Below, piece by piece: positions 42,653 through 49,391 of a stretch of DNA of 64,000 nt. How positions within the stretch are numbered: position 1 is the first letter of the stretch; every line of letters starts with the position of its first letter. The stretch is from the NCBI GenBank assembly GCA_963805975.1, contig CAWDVR010000001.1:1455911-1519910 (forward strand), in the 5' to 3' direction. The notes beneath the pieces were generated by a model. It saw only the letters and a program-made list of their open reading frames with translations. It had not been told where the DNA came from and searched no databases. The position numbers were made by a program, and so were the translations under genes. The DNA comes from an uncultured Acidobacteriota bacterium (lineage in GTDB: Bacteria; Acidobacteriota; Thermoanaerobaculia; Multivoradales; SZUA-115).

Positions 42653-45255
42653 TCAGGAAGGTCGCCTCGTCGGTCGTCTCTGCGGCTGGGCAGTCCACGG
42701 ATCGAGCGGCCAGGCGTGCTTGGGGTAGCGGCCGGCCAACTCTTTGCGCACCTGGGGGTAGACGCTGGCCCAGAAGCTCGCGAGGTCCTGCGTCACCTGC
42801 TGCGGCCGGCCGTTGGGCGCCAGAAGATGGAGCAGCACCGGCACCCGGCCGGCGGCGACGCGCGGCGTCTCCGCCAGGCCGAAGAGCTCCTGGATGCGCG
42901 CCGCGAGCACCGGCGGCTTGCCCTCCTCGTACTGGAGCCGGATGCGGCTGCCGCTCGGCACCGGCAGGCGCTCGGGCGCCTCACGCTCGACCGCCGCGAG
43001 CTGCGGCGCCGTGAGCAAGCCTTGCAGGATCTCGAGCCAGGGCAGGCGGCGCAGCTCCTCGAACGAGCGCTTGCCCGCGGAGAGCCCCGGCAGGAGCGGG
43101 CGGAGCTCCTCGATGGTGAAGGCCGGAAGTGCCAGCTCCGGCATCCAGCCGCGGAGGCAGCGGAGCCGCGCGATGAACCCGGCCAGCTCGCCCTCGTGCG
43201 AGGCCGCCAGGCGGTCGAGGGCTTCGCCCGCCGCCGACGCCAGCAGCTCGGCCGCGGCCTCGGCCGGCGCCGGCACTTCCTTCTCTTCCAGCACCAGGTC
43301 CCAGGCGCGCCGTCGCTCCACGGCGACCACCCGCTCGCGCCCGGCGTCGAAGACGGTCTCGACCGTGTGCGTCACGGCCTCGGGTCCGAGGTCCACGAGC
43401 CACTCCGGCTCCACGGCCGAGGCCATCCGCACCAGGGCCTCGGCGCGCTCGCCCCGTGCCCCGGCGTCGATCTCCAGGCAGAGAAACAGCTCGGCCGCGG
43501 TGACGCCGCTCTCGGCAGCCAGGCGCACCCCCCGGCCGCCCACCATGACCCCGCGCGGGCTTCCCGGCTCCCGCCGCCGCGCGAGGCGGTCGGGGAAGGC
43601 GGCGAGGAGGGCACGATAGAGGCCCTCACCCCGGCCCTCTCCCGCAAGCGGTAGAGGGCGCCCCCGCACACCCGCGGAACCGGTAAGGCGGCTCTCTTCC
43701 GGCCCCCTCGCCCCGCGGGAGCGGGGAGAGGGCTGGGGTGAGGGGCGCTCTACCCACCCCGCGAGCTGGTCCCGCACCTGGAGCACCTGGCGCGCTCCCC
43801 CGGCCCGCAGCCCTTCGCCCGCGCGGCCCGAGCGCTCGAAACGATCGAGCGCCAGGACCCGGTCCTCGAGGTCCGAGCGTGTGGTAGGAGCCGTGCTCCC
43901 GGCCCGCCGCTCGAACGGCGAGCGCTCGGAGAGGAGCGCCGCCGCAAGCGCCGCCTCCCGCGCACAGCCCTGCTGCTCGCCGGACAGCAGCAGGCGCCCG
44001 AGCCGGGGATGGAGAGGCAGCCTGGCCAGGCGCCGGCCGAGCGCGGTCAGGCCCCGCGGGCCGGTGGCGCCCAGCCGCGCCAGCAGCTCGAGCGCCTGTT
44101 CGAGGCGTCCGCGCTCCGGCGCCTCGAACCAGCCGAAGGCGAAGAGGTCGGTCTCGCCCCAGGCGAGGAGCTGGAGCGCCGCGCCGGCGAGGTCCACGCG
44201 CCGTACCTCCGGCGTCGAGCGCCGCGGCATCGAGGCCTGCTCCGCCACCGTCCACAGCCGCAGGCAGCGCCCCGGCCCCTGGCGCCCCGCCCGGCCGGCC
44301 CGCTGCTCGGCGGAGGCCTGCGAGATCCGCGTCACCCGCAGCCGGTCGAGCCCGCAACCGGGATCGTGCTCGAGGATGCGCGCCAACCCGGAGTCGATCA
44401 CCGCCGACACCCCTTCGATCGTCACCGAGGTTTCGGCCACGTTGGTCGAGAGCACCACGCGGCGAATCGCGCCGGGCCGCAAGGCCTCGTCCTGCCGCTC
44501 GGGTGCCAGGTCGCCGTAGAGGGGCACGATCTTCACCCCGTGCGCCGCAGCCAGCTCGGCGAGGGCCTCGGCCGAGCGCTCGATCTCCCGCACGCCCGGC
44601 AGGAAGACGAGGAGATCGCCCGCGGTCTCCCCCAGCAGCCGCCGCGCGGCCGAAGCGACCTGCGCCGGCAGGGGCCGGTCGTCCGGCCGCGGCAGGAGCT
44701 CGACCGCTACGGGAAACTGCCGCCCGGCGCTCGCCACCACCGGCGCGCCGCCCAGGAACCGCGCCACCGGCTCCACCTCGAGCGTGGCGGACATGGCGAC
44801 GATCGCGAGATCCGGCCGCACTTCCTGCCGTACCTTGCGCGCCATGGCCAGCGCCAGGTCACTCGCCAGGTTGCGCTCGTGGAGCTCGTCGAAGACCAGC
44901 GCGCCGACGCCGGTCAAGAAAGGATCGGCGTCGAGCAGGTTCGAAGCCACGCCTTCGGTGACCACCAGCACCCGGGTCTCGGCCGAGGCGACCCGCTCGA
45001 AGCGCACCTGGTAGCCCACCTCGCGGCCGAGCGTCCAGCCCTGCTCGAAGGCGATCCGCGTGCAGCGGCCCGCGCGGCGACCCGGCGCGGCTCGACCACG
45101 ATCACCTGGCCTGCGACCTGCCGGGCCAGGGCCGGAGGCACCCGGGTCGTCTTGCCGGCACCGGGCGGCGCCTGCACCACGGCAGCGCCTCGACTCGCCA
45201 CCGCGGCCAGGACCTGAGGCAGGACGTCGTCGATGGGCAAAGGGGCGAGCGGCAT
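42653..45255 (-). CDS. hrpB: ATP-dependent RNA helicase HrpB, frameshift near 45058
   Basis: [13 protein letters not shown] and [10 protein letters not shown] in one frame; [26 protein letters not shown] and GRYPKHAWP in the next. One base is missing. Confidence 0.9.
43623..43744. repeat. REP-like inverted repeat (CCCTCACCCCGGCCCTCTCCC type) inside the hrpB coding sequence
   Basis: CCCTCACCCCGGCCCTCTCCC...GGGAGAGGGCTGGGGTGAGGG; the reading frame is preserved. Confidence 0.75.
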
Positions 45256-45355
45256 CGGCTCCTCGTAACGATTCACATGCATCTTCGCCCATGTAGAAGT
45301 TGCGGTTCAGAGCGGACCGCGCGTTCCCGTTCTACGGGAGAAAGGAGACGTTACC

Positions 45356-45673
45356 TTGACCAGCGAAGACAGGGGATCGGAAAAGCTGCGCGACCGGTTT
45401 GGAGGCTGCACTCTCGAGCCCAAGGACCTGGAGGCCCTCGTCGTCAAGCTCGAGCGCCACGGGTTCCGCCTCAACGACTGGCTGATCAAAGGCCAGCCGC
45501 GGCCGGACTGGGTCACGGGCAGCATCGACGTGCCGCGGGCCGAGATCGGCAAGGCGATCCAGGTGCTCGCCGAAGTCGACGGCGTGCGCATCAACCTCGA
45601 CGGTTTCCCGATCGGCATTCCCTTCCCGGACATCTACCGGATCGGGTTCCGCGGCGTCGGTCAGCCGGGCTGA
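45356..45673 (+). CDS. small hypothetical protein (105 aa) with two G-x-P-x-P-D motifs; candidate radical SAM substrate or partner
   Basis: AAAGGAG SD before the TTG start; strong coding bias; 10-nt gap to the radical SAM gene. Confidence 0.75.
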   Translation: MTSEDRGSEKLRDRFGGCTLEPKDLEALVVKLERHGFRLNDWLIKGQPRPDWVTGSIDVPRAEIGKAIQVLAEVDGVRINLDGFPIGIPFPDIYRIGFRGVGQPG

Positions 45674-45683
45674 GGAGGCAGCG

Positions 45684-46727
45684 ATGGGGCCCACAGGCAG
45701 GTCGCGGATCCTCCAGATTCACCCCAGCCGCCTGTGCAACCTGCGCTGCTTGCACTGCTACTCCTCCTCAGGGCCGCAGGAGCGCGGCGAGATCCCGGCT
45801 TCGCTCCTGCGGTCCATACTCGCCGAGGCGACCGAGGAAGGGTACGGCGTGGCCGGGTTCTCGGGCGGCGAGCCGCTGCTCTATTCCGGCCTCGCCGAGG
45901 TGCTCGCCGAGGCCAAGGCGCTGGGCATGACCACCACCGTCACCTCCAACGGCATGCTGCTCGACGAGCGCCGCCTGGGGCGGTTGCAGGGGGTCACGGA
46001 CCTCCTCGCCATCAGCCTCGACGGCACCCCCGAGGCGCACGACCGGATGCGCAACCGCTCCGGCGCGTTCGAGCGCATGGCGGGCCGGCTGCCCGGTGTC
46101 CGCGCGTCCGGCATCCCGTTCGGGTTCATCTTCACGCTCACGCAGCACAACCTGGATCAGCTCCCCTGGGTCGCCTCCTTCGCGCTCCAGGAGGGAGCCG
46201 CGCTGCTCCAGATCCACCCGCTGGAGCTCGCCGGCCGGGCGGCCACCGAGCTCGCGGCCTCGCGGCCGGACACCACCGAGTCCTCCTGGGCCTTCGTGGC
46301 CGCGGCGAGCCTCCAGCAGTCGCTCGGCGACCGGCTGCGCATCCAGCTCGACCTCTTCAGCCGCGAAGCCTTGCGCGAGGCGCCGGACAGGGTCTTCGCC
46401 GGTGGCCCCGAGGCCGGCGCCCGAGGCCGGAAGCTCGGCGAGCTGCTGTCGCCGCTGATCCTCGAGCCCGATGGCACGCTGGTGCCGGTCGAGTACGGCT
46501 TCCCGCGCGCCTTCCAGCTCGGCAACGTCCATCGCATGAGTTTCGGCGCCTGTGCCGACCGCTGGCGCCGCGAGCTGGACGAGCCGTTCCGCGCGCTCTG
46601 CCGGGAAGAGCACACCGACCTCCTGGGCGTCGAGGCCCTGCCGCTCGCCAACTGGTACGAACGGCTCTCGCAGCGCGCACACCGCGGCGTGGGCTACGGC
46701 TTGGTGGGGTTGGGACAGACGGCTTGA
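45684..46727 (+). CDS. radical SAM enzyme
   Basis: CNLRCLHCY, FSGGEP, TSNG, ISLDG...HDRMR; GAGGAGG SD. Confidence 0.92.
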   Translation: MGPTGRSRILQIHPSRLCNLRCLHCYSSSGPQERGEIPASLLRSILAEATEEGYGVAGFSGGEPLLYSGLAEVLAEAKALGMTTTVTSNGMLLDERRLGRLQGVTDLLAISLDGTPEAHDRMRNRSGAFERMAGRLPGVRASGIPFGFIFTLTQHNLDQLPWVASFALQEGAALLQIHPLELAGRAATELAASRPDTTESSWAFVAAASLQQSLGDRLRIQLDLFSREALREAPDRVFAGGPEAGARGRKLGELLSPLILEPDGTLVPVEYGFPRAFQLGNVHRMSFGACADRWRRELDEPFRALCREEHTDLLGVEALPLANWYERLSQRAHRGVGYGLVGLGQTA

Positions 46728-46896: not shown

Positions 46897-47457
46897 ATGG
46901 CCAAGAACGACGCGTCCCCACTGCCCGCCAAGACCGGCCTCGGCGCCTACCGCCAGGAGATCCGCTTCCTGGTCGCCTTCCTGCTCCTGCTGGGCCTCTC
47001 CTTCACCGTCATCTCCCTCAACTGGGTGAACGACCACGTCGTCGAGCCGTTCACCGCCGGCATCGCGCAGGTGAGCGGCTGGACCCTGAAGGCGCTCGGG
47101 CAGGACATCCGCATGCAGGGCACCATGATCCTCTCCGACCGCTTCTCGGTGAACATCAAGAACGGTTGCAACGGTGTGGAGACCATGCTGATCTTCTTCT
47201 CCGCCGTGCTCGCCTTCCCCGCCACCTGGAAGTCGCGCGCCGCCGGGCTCGGCCTGGGGCTCGCCGCCATCCAGGTCGTCAACCTGGTGCGGGTCGTGGC
47301 CCTCTTCCTGACCGGCGCCTACCTGCCGAGGCTCTTCGACACCTCCCACACCGTCGTCTGGCAGAGCCTGGTGATCCTCTTCGGCGTGCTGCTGTGGATC
47401 TTCTGGGCCAACCGCTACGCCGGCCCGCCGGCCGCCACCCCGGCGACCGCGGAATAG
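46897..47457 (+). CDS. xrtH: exosortase H-like membrane transpeptidase
   Basis: Catalytic Cys (NGCNGVE), Arg (NLVRVVALF) and His (SHTVVWQ); compact multi-TM protein. Confidence 0.85.
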   Translation: MAKNDASPLPAKTGLGAYRQEIRFLVAFLLLLGLSFTVISLNWVNDHVVEPFTAGIAQVSGWTLKALGQDIRMQGTMILSDRFSVNIKNGCNGVETMLIFFSAVLAFPATWKSRAAGLGLGLAAIQVVNLVRVVALFLTGAYLPRLFDTSHTVVWQSLVILFGVLLWIFWANRYAGPPAATPATAE

Positions 47458-47474
47458 GGCCCGGCCGCGAACCC

Positions 47475-48083
47475 ATGGCCCGGCGCGACAAGCCCGAAGC
47501 CACTCCGAGCGAAGCAGCGCCCGCCGGCGACCGCGGCGCCTGGGCGCTGCGGCTGATCCGCAACGTGCTCCTCTGGGCGATCCCGCTGTCGGCGCTGTGG
47601 TGGGCGGCGACGCCGTTCTACAACCGCTTCATCACCGTAGCCTCCGGCAACCTGCTGAAGATCGCCGAGAGCCCGAACGTGACCCGGCTGGTGCCTGCCG
47701 ACCCGCACTACATCTCGATCCAGCGGGACGACTTCCCGCCCGGCAAGCCCAACTACCGCGTGCGGGTGACCGATCTCCATTTCCATCTGGTGCTGCTCGG
47801 TGCCCTGTTCCTGGCGGTGCCCGGCGTGCCGCTCAAGGCGCGGCTCGGACCGCTCGGCTGGGCGCTCCTGGTGGCCGTCTTCTTCCACATCCTCGATCTC
47901 TTCTTCTGGGTCAAGTTCGCCTACGCCACCCAGCTCGGCGACTGGAGCACCGAGCACTACGGCGCCTTCGGGCAGAACTTCTGGGGCATGGCCAAGCACC
48001 TGACCGACCTGCCCTTCAAGCTCGCCCTCCCCCTGGCGCTGTGGGTGGGGTTCTACTACCGGAAGATCGTTCCCGCCCGGTAG
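47475..48083 (+). CDS. exosortase-associated membrane protein
   Basis: Four hydrophobic segments, ending LPLALWV; adjacent to xrtH. Confidence 0.6.
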   Translation: MARRDKPEATPSEAAPAGDRGAWALRLIRNVLLWAIPLSALWWAATPFYNRFITVASGNLLKIAESPNVTRLVPADPHYISIQRDDFPPGKPNYRVRVTDLHFHLVLLGALFLAVPGVPLKARLGPLGWALLVAVFFHILDLFFWVKFAYATQLGDWSTEHYGAFGQNFWGMAKHLTDLPFKLALPLALWVGFYYRKIVPAR

Positions 48084-48335
48084 TAGGCAGCAGACAGCAC
48101 CGTGCGCCCTCTTGGCGCCTGGTGCGCTAGCCAGTTCCACGCGCTCCTCGCTGTTCAACCCGCCTCGACCAGAATTTCCTAAACGGCGGATGCGCCGGCC
48201 GCGTCTATAGATGCATGACTGCTCACTGTAGACCTTAGTCGATCAACGAAGGAGTGAGATCCATCGGATCGATCGACGGGCCATCCGCCCGTAGGCCACT
48301 GGTGCGCCCTCGGGCCTCATCGAAAGGAGCTCGAA

Positions 48336-49391
48336 GTGAGAAAGTGCATCACTGCCGCAGTCTTCGCCTTGTGTACGGCACTCGGGGCACCAGAGGCAGG
48401 TGCCCAGCTCGACCTCAGCGCGGGCGAGAGCCTTCAGGACCTGCCGGCACGCCTGGTGGCGGAAGGGTGGCGCGAGGTGGCTCCCGGTTTCCTCCAGCGC
48501 CAGCTACCCGGCCAGCCCACCGAGACGCTCGCCTTCGCCAATGAGGGGCTCCAGCAGGCCGTGCAGCAACTGCGGAGCAGGCACGGCGCGCTGCTGCAGA
48601 CGTACCAGCAGAAGCCCACACCCGAGATGGCCCAGGCCCTTGCCGACTTGAGCGCCCAGATCGTCGAGATGGAGCGGACGCTGGTCCGGGGTCAGGTGGA
48701 AGGGTTACCGATGGTGACGAACTGCGACATCGCCTTTGGCTGCAATGCAGCGGCCTATCCGCTGACGACCGGGAGCCGGGGAGTGGGAGCCAACTCTTCC
48801 TCCTACTTCTTCAACAACTGCAGCTACCAGGCGACGGCCTACGCCGACTCCTACGGCTACACCGCGAGCGGCTCCAGCTTCCAGAGCAACTCTCAGAACG
48901 GCGCCAACGTCAGCAAGTCGGCGTCGATCAGCGTCGGTGGAGGGCCCTCGTGCTTCTCGGACGCGGTGTCCTACGTGAGCTCTCCTGGTCTTAGCCTCTA
49001 CTACTCCTGCTATCAGTCCAACAGCAGTTGCCCATTGATTCCGCCGGGAGTGTCGATCAGCGGCCCCGGCGCGCTCTACATCTCCGGATATGCCTGCCAG
49101 ACCGCGTACTGGTATGCGAACGCCTCCGGCGGCACCCCGCCCTACTCCTACAGCTGGACGGTCTATGGCTATGGCGCCGGCACCGGAAGCTCGACCTCGA
49201 TGACGTTCTGCGGCTCGGGCTCGACCTACACGGACTACGTCCCGGTTGCCGTCGATCTGTACGACTCGGCGAGCGGCTACGCTTCCAATTCGTTCTCCAC
49301 GACGATCTACTACTCGGGCGGCGGTGGTGGCTGCTACGAGTACGGGGCCGAGGACGGAGCGAAGATGAGACCCATAGAACCCTGCTACTGA
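48336..49391 (+). CDS. secreted Cys/Ser/Tyr/Gly-rich protein with Ig-like segment
   Basis: AAAGGAG SD; signal peptide; helical N-domain; ASGGTPPYSYSW motif. Confidence 0.8.
   Translation: MRKCITAAVFALCTALGAPEAGAQLDLSAGESLQDLPARLVAEGWREVAPGFLQRQLPGQPTETLAFANEGLQQAVQQLRSRHGALLQTYQQKPTPEMAQALADLSAQIVEMERTLVRGQVEGLPMVTNCDIAFGCNAAAYPLTTGSRGVGANSSSYFFNNCSYQATAYADSYGYTASGSSFQSNSQNGANVSKSASISVGGGPSCFSDAVSYVSSPGLSLYYSCYQSNSSCPLIPPGVSISGPGALYISGYACQTAYWYANASGGTPPYSYSWTVYGYGAGTGSSTSMTFCGSGSTYTDYVPVAVDLYDSASGYASNSFSTTIYYSGGGGGCYEYGAEDGAKMRPIEPCY

Follow-up and report, generated by a model that had tools for sequence, protein, structure and literature searches.

A radical SAM enzyme lacking auxiliary-cluster ligands and its small Gly-x-Pro partner: a candidate two-gene system for backbone modification

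The window studied here, a 64,000-nucleotide stretch of DNA from an uncultured Acidobacteriota bacterium, carries a two-gene cassette: the gene of a small protein bearing a pair of Gly-x-Pro loops immediately precedes that of a radical SAM enzyme. We propose, with a probability of about 0.78, that the enzyme binds the small protein and that a SAM-derived radical takes a backbone hydrogen from each Gly-x-Pro loop, inversion of residue x being the favoured though tentative outcome. Comparison of related loci makes it highly probable that these loops are the substrate and the site of reaction, since the same motif is found on unrelated carriers, including leader-core peptides. A broader view, in which a cluster-free enzyme of SPASM shape writes an undescribed backbone modification into a portable Gly-x-Pro tag borne by four kinds of carrier, has in our opinion somewhat less than an even chance of being correct.

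The general logic of a radical SAM enzyme encoded beside its substrate is already well known, for instance from the QhpD/QhpC pair, where the enzyme modifies the protein encoded next door. In the available text of PMC13692751, CrpC, an enzyme with three clusters, forms Cys thioethers on CrpA; there, as in the cassette, a gene-adjacent protein is treated as a RiPP precursor, but the partner of the window has a single Cys, located outside the loops. SPASM-fold radical SAM maturases nearly always carry auxiliary clusters, the role of which is debated (PMC8326336, available sections). A widespread natural family without auxiliary ligands would thus probe the chemistry feasible without such clusters. 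Because the candidate substrate is a soluble protein of 105 residues in which two loops stand out, and conservation extends to no further gene, the two-gene system should be tractable. If the proposal is true, loop editing in a folded protein would be a candidate tool for protein engineering, and the two genes together would allow the backbone of folded proteins to be edited site-specifically. The family is not described in the open literature that we searched, subscription papers and bioRxiv supplements lying outside this search; a motif search in one supplement of PMC10288494 did not yield a description of it either.

The cassette and its genomic setting

The two-gene arrangement given in the initial annotation, with a Shine-Dalgarno sequence for each gene and a spacing of 10 nt, is borne out by the sequence. 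The small partner gene (45356-45673, + strand) encodes 105 residues and starts with TTG, 8 nt after an AAGGAG motif (45342-45347, +); its product is the likely substrate. The GGAGG motif of the enzyme gene (45674-45678, +) abuts the stop codon of the small gene and lies 5 nt before the enzyme start. The enzyme gene (45684-46727, +) encodes 347 residues. The small gene can be considered a real coding frame because it has many homologues and because, in a soil RNA-library contig 98% identical to the window, five of its six differences are synonymous. In an RNA run picked by its match to the window, which consists of contigs without a DNA control and from which no expression level was derived, a 450-base contig spans the small gene and the enzyme start and a 263-base piece lies within the enzyme gene; these are the longest among the pieces listed over 19.9 kb. 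No sigma-70 promoter or terminator was found for the cassette, no Rfam match came close to a gathering score, and hairpins upstream of the cassette were no better than those of shuffled sequences (z -0.71). The GC3 values of the two genes (0.89 and 0.93) resemble those of the neighbours (0.91-0.98), so that composition gives no sign of recent transfer.

The cassette is flanked by a divergent hrpB helicase gene and by the gene of exosortase H, which starts 170 nt downstream. Two genomes from the same family place exosortase H beside pyrR, with neither hrpB nor the cassette in between, and the enzyme was not found in them (E<=1e-60). The unit therefore consists of two genes. The same cassette-free occurrence of exosortase H rules it out as a component of the cassette. 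Moreover, the neighbours of the family loci revealed no third conserved gene around the enzyme-partner pair, and the genome of the window contains one partner and one enzyme of the family. The hrpB gene (42653-45253, - strand) is frameshifted near 45058, its N-terminus and the remainder lying in different frames; the contig of a relative has one extra base at the break. The frameshift may reflect either an assembly error or a broken gene. On the other side, the region 46897-49391 (+) encodes exosortase H together with an unnamed membrane protein and a secreted-looking, Ser/Tyr/Cys-rich protein of 351 residues that has no family match, and is followed by smc.

The radical SAM enzyme and its tail

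The enzyme matches PF04055 with 71.5 bits, for a cut-off of 29.5, and displays the CxxxCxxC and GGEP motifs and, in the model, a partial TIM barrel. The canonical CxxxCxxC noted initially (C18, C22 and C25; 45735-45758, +), which holds the SAM-binding cluster, is indeed found in all 161 sequences compared. The family is large, with 1471 of 7996 candidates at E<=1e-30. Among the best 25 of 69 NCBIfam matches, the enzyme stays below every cut-off (best score 93 bits versus 515); the radical SAM families compared include NirJ, AhbC/D, SkfB, PqqE, MftC, TIGR04347 and TIGR04133, and members of the family score against the same profiles, likewise weakly. Judged from its sequence, the enzyme behaves like a RiPP or protein maturase of SPASM lineage, outside every named family tested.

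The predicted structure (pLDDT 91) supports this assignment. The barrel begins at residue 9 and, in agreement with the initial annotation, no RRE is present; anSME is likewise not known to carry an RRE. SkfB (6efn; Z 26.3, rmsd 3.7, 278 residues aligned), SuiB (5v1t; Z 24.6, rmsd 3.1, 288 residues), anSME (4k36-39) and ChlB (9gm3) resemble the enzyme in the barrel and in a tail that also aligns structurally. The alignment with these SPASM-twitch maturases reaches residues 334-337, tail included, and their small substrate gene is placed upstream, as in the cassette. However, the enzyme is only 15-21% identical to these four proteins, has no Cys at the positions of their auxiliary ligands, and is associated with a Gly-x-Pro substrate motif.

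A profile of the tail matches anSME 263-317 at E 2e-4. In this alignment, Cys276 of anSME, the Cys of the DGxVxP-C motif, faces Val269 of the enzyme, within a hairpin of SPASM type (residues 257-281; 46452-46526, +), and the five commonest states of the column are L, I, V, M and F. Pfam SPASM (PF13186) also recognises 17 of 31 family tails (E<=0.1), but not that of the window. The tail is a SPASM homologue devoid of cysteines at the aligned ligand positions, though a cluster could conceivably be ligated by non-Cys residues. Thus, of the Cys-less SPASM/twitch-like tail initially annotated, the loss of the ligand Cys stands (V269), but the tail does hold two cysteines, C290 and C306.

Cys306 (46599-46601, +) is the sole conserved Cys beyond the SAM motif, away from the ligand positions. 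Of 160 aligned sequences, 153 retain it; six rows, all from one clade, have Ser instead and one has Phe. It is also missing in the more distant enzymes L163, L166, L182 and L183, the partners of which keep at least one clear loop. Cys306 aligns with Ser310 of anSME; the helix carrying this Ser runs to the second auxiliary cluster and is, we assume, far from the active site. In the clade formed by L026, L098, L104-L106 and L142, a Tat-bearing partner and a Ser in place of Cys306 coincide. Elsewhere in the enzyme, H13, Q176, H178, D223 and W294 are invariant and Trp324 (46653-46655, +), at the end of the tail, is found in 158 of 159 sequences; these six residues may shape the active site.

The prediction of an enzyme-partner complex, a check suggested in the initial annotation, gave a score of 0.45, well above that of the best control (0.02). 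At least 76% of the contacts agreed between runs, with a pLDDT of at least 52 for the partner. The mark set for such scores was reached by 116 of 157 solved pairs and by 2 of 215 mismatched pairs; 18 of the 157 solved pairs and both mismatches reached it at scores of 0.60 or under. The prediction thus weakly supports an interaction, at scores that mismatches also attain.

Association of the enzyme with Gly-x-Pro carriers

To describe the surroundings of the enzyme, the 80 best of 315 loci in genomes and the 80 best of 473 loci in metagenomes were collected (160 loci), seven of which had too little upstream DNA and were left out of the pairing count. Among the 153 assessable loci, with classes partly set by hand (L090 has one loop, L116 contains a frame fusion, the partner of L108 lies downstream and L076 shows a G-I-V variant), 115 have a folded partner, 33 a short leader-core peptide, three a tandem-repeat protein and two no partner. 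A motif-bearing small gene therefore lies beside the enzyme at 151 of 153 loci, and homologous enzymes without the small gene, which the initial annotation named as evidence against its proposal, are almost never observed. The genomic comparison thus supports the modification of the small folded protein at its loops that was initially inferred. The two exceptions, defined on the stretch fetched, are L060, where the enzyme match begins at residue 8, behind a Lon-like gene, and L073, which is a long branch. A fixed motif pattern, derived from the very loci on which it was scored, is present in 146 of 151 upstream windows and in 110 of 115 clusters at 90% identity, compared with 7/136 downstream, 23/151 reverse-strand and 83/1000 random windows.

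Whole-genome samples independent of these loci lead to the same picture. Nine of 301 genomes of the class contain the enzyme, all nine with a partner directly upstream, and the six partner matches of this sample (E<=1e-5) all adjoin the enzyme. At the level of the phylum, the enzyme is found in 5 of 301 genomes, and motif partners in three of the four genomes other than that of the window; in the most distant match, L184, the upstream gene has no clear motif. Samples centred on an actinomycete (2/301) and on a cyanobacterium (2/251) added two new loci, both with partners. The system is rare and patchy, yet present in many phyla, including Acidobacteriota, Cyanobacteriota, Pseudomonadota, Chloroflexota, Armatimonadota, Planctomycetota and Actinomycetota. 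In a tree built by a quick method from 94 rows (the 80 genome loci, 13 of the 80 metagenome loci and the window), peptide-type partners fall into three supported groups. As its starred branches are compatible with each peptide class having arisen once, the tree is not taken to show an order of events.

The partner itself is elusive in databases. Searching with its sequence returned one homologue, and the family emerged from the DNA upstream of the 160 enzyme loci. The partner has no Pfam or NCBIfam match, the 75 members showing at E<=0.05 only scattered matches in one or two of them; ESM Atlas gave no usable match and Foldseek none at E<=0.001. No longer or fused form was seen among 7995 candidates, which is weak evidence. 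The alignment of 75 rows has a mean column identity of 22%, and its invariant columns are G46, P48 and G87. These residues belong to two loops, G46-Q-P48-R-P-D51 (45491-45508, +) and G87-I-P89-F-P-D92 (45614-45631, +), both of which are likely modification sites. G46, P48 and G87 are each found in 75/75 rows and P89 in 67/75, but retention of the second Pro and of the Asp drops to 38-48 of the 75. Thus, the twin G-x-P-x-P-D motifs initially described do exist in the window (GQPRPD 46-51 and GIPFPD 87-92), whereas the conserved core is reduced to Gly-x-Pro. The internal repeat proposed at the same time is confirmed by comparing the profiles of the two halves of this alignment (probability 94%, E 1e-7, 23 columns; 1.4% for the reversed control).

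At the N-terminus, an RGSxKL motif reminiscent of a leader (residues 6-11; 45371-45388, +) includes G7 (74/75) and S8 (73/75), and xGS is found in 107 of 110 folded partners. The RGS-type motif recurs in the peptide precursors L012, L052, L059, L064, L066 and L123 and is lacking in a more distant partner subfamily. It is likely that RGSxKL serves as an element of recognition by the enzyme. Beyond it, the start of the first domain helix (45413-45457) resembles, by eye, the L-S/T-x-x-E-L box of double-glycine leaders in the folded partners, a resemblance that may be that of a generic helix cap.

The model of the partner (pLDDT 82, pTM 0.67) comprises an N-terminal helix, which is less certain, followed by a circularly permuted ferredoxin-like fold (helix, two strands, helix, two strands). 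Each Gly-x-Pro occupies a hairpin turn, loop 1 in the first predicted hairpin and loop 2 in the second. According to the model, the sheet should hold the two loops at its opposite ends, so that two separate reactions are more plausible than a link joining the loops. PilO, PulL/EpsL, PulM/EpsM and XcpY share this topology with Z 8.6-9.4 (PulL: Z 8.7, rmsd 2.4, 73 residues aligned), scores little different from those that chance gives with common folds; unlike PilO, PulL, PulM and XcpY, to which it is 8-16% identical, the partner has no membrane anchor and no secretion-system context. In the distant locus L163 (10-390), an acidic stretch with W-C-G at its end, followed by a Pro-rich strand end, stands in place of loop 1, and loop 2 is normal.

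Four kinds of motif carriers can be distinguished: the folded ferredoxin-like protein found in the window, peptides with double-glycine leaders, lanthipeptide precursors and tandem repeats. In cyanobacteria, the motif follows leaders of double-glycine type, in up to five copies (L021); L029 and L033 are other precursors with several copies. Peptides of Methylococcaceae, Nitrosomonas and Competibacteraceae begin with the RGS start of the folded form and continue with a leader ending in GG. The peptide cores carry the loop-2 form of the motif; their Gly is constant and the following Pro is sometimes Ile, Val or Cys. L063 and L069 score above cut-off as mersacidin-type precursors and adjoin LanM; they share a G-I-C variant with a distant folded subfamily (L182:1117-1470, L183:2556-2885). 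In L103:2846-3856, L108:1975-2742 and L101:3-350, many tandem copies of the motif follow a short N-terminal segment, possibly an export signal of Planctomycete type in L103 and L108, where neither Pfam nor NCBIfam confirms it. In the cyanobacterial locus L012 (6244-7990), a second pair, made of a Nif11-domain peptide and another radical SAM enzyme, stands directly behind the cassette.

Leader-core precursor genes beside the enzyme, a feature typical of RiPP loci, are thus found in the family. A C39 peptidase-transporter accompanies 18 of 33 peptide-type loci versus 2 of 115 folded-type loci or, at loci with 2 kb on both sides, 13/26 versus 1/52, counts in which kin are not independent. Two folded partners have Tat signals just above the cut-off and a third just below. 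As to the window, the initial annotation noted no adjacent protease or transporter, and in the genome, which is 96% complete, no C39 transporter/peptidase domain is found to act as leader protease or exporter. From their sequences, relatives appear to export their motif carriers, while the copy of the window has no recognisable export route beside it.

Role of the small protein and nature of the modification

Two readings deny that the small protein is the substrate. It could instead be an adaptor or regulator of the enzyme, in a role resembling that of PqqD, with something other than the small protein as the true substrate. A predicted compact folded domain and, for the folded form, the lack of an accompanying protease, exporter or third conserved gene would fit such a role. 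Yet, at 36 of the 153 loci, the position of the folded gene is occupied by a motif-bearing leader-core peptide or tandem-repeat protein, as would be expected of substrates, and the predicted fold is ferredoxin-like rather than the winged helix of an RRE, which renders an adaptor very unlikely. Even less credit can be given to an enzyme acting on a small molecule, as do NirJ, AhbC and AhbD in heme pathways, with an incidental neighbour. Profiles of these types do give the top NCBIfam scores, and some database labels read 'Fe-coproporphyrin III synthase', but the scores amount to 77-93 bits, for cut-offs of 500-650, and cover the barrel only. Moreover, heme genes do not recur nearby and the small gene is nearly always there.

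Beyond the observed gene pairing, motif conservation and loss of auxiliary-cluster ligands, the proposed sequence of events in the modification of the small protein would be as follows. The enzyme would recognise its partner through the RGS helix, acting as a leader, and a Gly-x-Pro loop would enter the barrel. There, the 5'-deoxyadenosyl radical would abstract a backbone hydrogen from the loop, and residue x would be inverted from L to D with unchanged mass. As such an inversion is mass-silent, an unchanged mass would be no argument against modification. Since x is variable (Q, I, T, K, L, R or V in loop 1) and Tyr, other aromatic residues and Cys are dispensable, chemistry on the backbone is indicated. 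Similarly, an enzyme that has lost its auxiliary clusters would be expected to catalyse a reaction with no net oxidation, although radical SAM enzymes with one cluster can oxidize too.

Epimerization at x is, by analogy, a possible though tentative form of this chemistry. PoyD carries an N-terminal RRE. In the available sections of PMC8326336 and PMC13012085, radical SAM peptide epimerases, namely those of the proteusins (PoyD, OspD, AvpD, PlpD) and EpeE of the epipeptides, act on Val/Ile backbones. A single conserved Cys, Cys372, serves as hydrogen donor in PoyD, and enzymes of this type act on precursors with nitrile-hydratase-like leaders (PMC8326336); in EpeE, the donor Cys223 adjoins an auxiliary cluster (PMC13012085). 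The fold of EpeE aligns with the enzyme (Z 20.4, rmsd 4.2, 274 residues), and the one conserved Cys of the tail recalls Cys372 of PoyD, as far as the latter is described, but is not universal. The enzyme also departs from the PoyD type, with its RRE and proteusin precursor, in a barrel starting at residue 9 and in a partner without Pfam or NCBIfam match. Cys306 may be proposed, weakly, as the hydrogen-atom donor. Resting on the analogy with PoyD and EpeE, the case for an epimerase is weak because Cys306 is not universal and lies on a helix probably far from the active site. In addition, no residue other than Gly is invariant across the two loops, and Gly cannot be epimerized. In the folded form, loop residues could also be conserved for structural reasons.

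In a close rival, nearly as likely as epimerization, the same pair would create a radical on the invariant Gly; the outcome could be cleavage of the backbone, a cross-link, a rearrangement or a stored glycyl radical. Gly is invariant in loop 1 as well as in loop 2 (75/75 each) and constant in the peptide cores, and no donor Cys would be needed, in keeping with the exceptions at Cys306. Furthermore, glycyl-radical activases have one cluster and act on a protein loop, and one such structure, 3cb8, aligns with the enzyme (Z 17.2, rmsd 2.5, 209 residues). On the other hand, Gly may be fixed merely by the turn or by a pocket of the enzyme. A stored glycyl radical is oxygen-labile and would poorly suit the exported peptides of cyanobacteria and methanotrophs, and cleavage or cross-linking is usually an oxidation, for which the electron-accepting clusters are missing. 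On balance, inversion of x is placed slightly ahead.

An oxidative side-chain cross-link within the loops, either a cyclophane from the Phe or Trp before the motif or a thioether, as made by SuiB, triceptide synthases and sactisynthases, seems improbable. The nearest folds are indeed those of SkfB and SuiB, and for either loop 62 of 75 rows contain an aromatic residue at positions -4..+2 relative to Gly. However, triceptide and cyclophane synthases use a conserved aromatic residue in a three-residue motif (PMC11499958, available text), whereas here its position differs between loops (-4 in loop 1, -3 in loop 2), 13 of 75 rows lack it in each loop and L152 has it in neither. A conserved donor Cys, expected in the precursors of sactisynthases and ranthisynthases, is likewise lacking, Cys of any kind being present in just 14 of 75 partners, and the auxiliary ligands are absent. 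Spliceases, too, act on a protein encoded beside them in the manner of a RiPP precursor, and their target motif is XYG. Spliceases of PlpX type are named in PMC8326336, as far as its available text goes. Unlike their Tyr-Gly, the residues found in the partner of the window are Lys-Gly (K45-G46) and Ile-Gly (I86-G87), and across the family Tyr precedes Gly in 12 of 75 rows for loop 1 and in 23 of 75 for loop 2.
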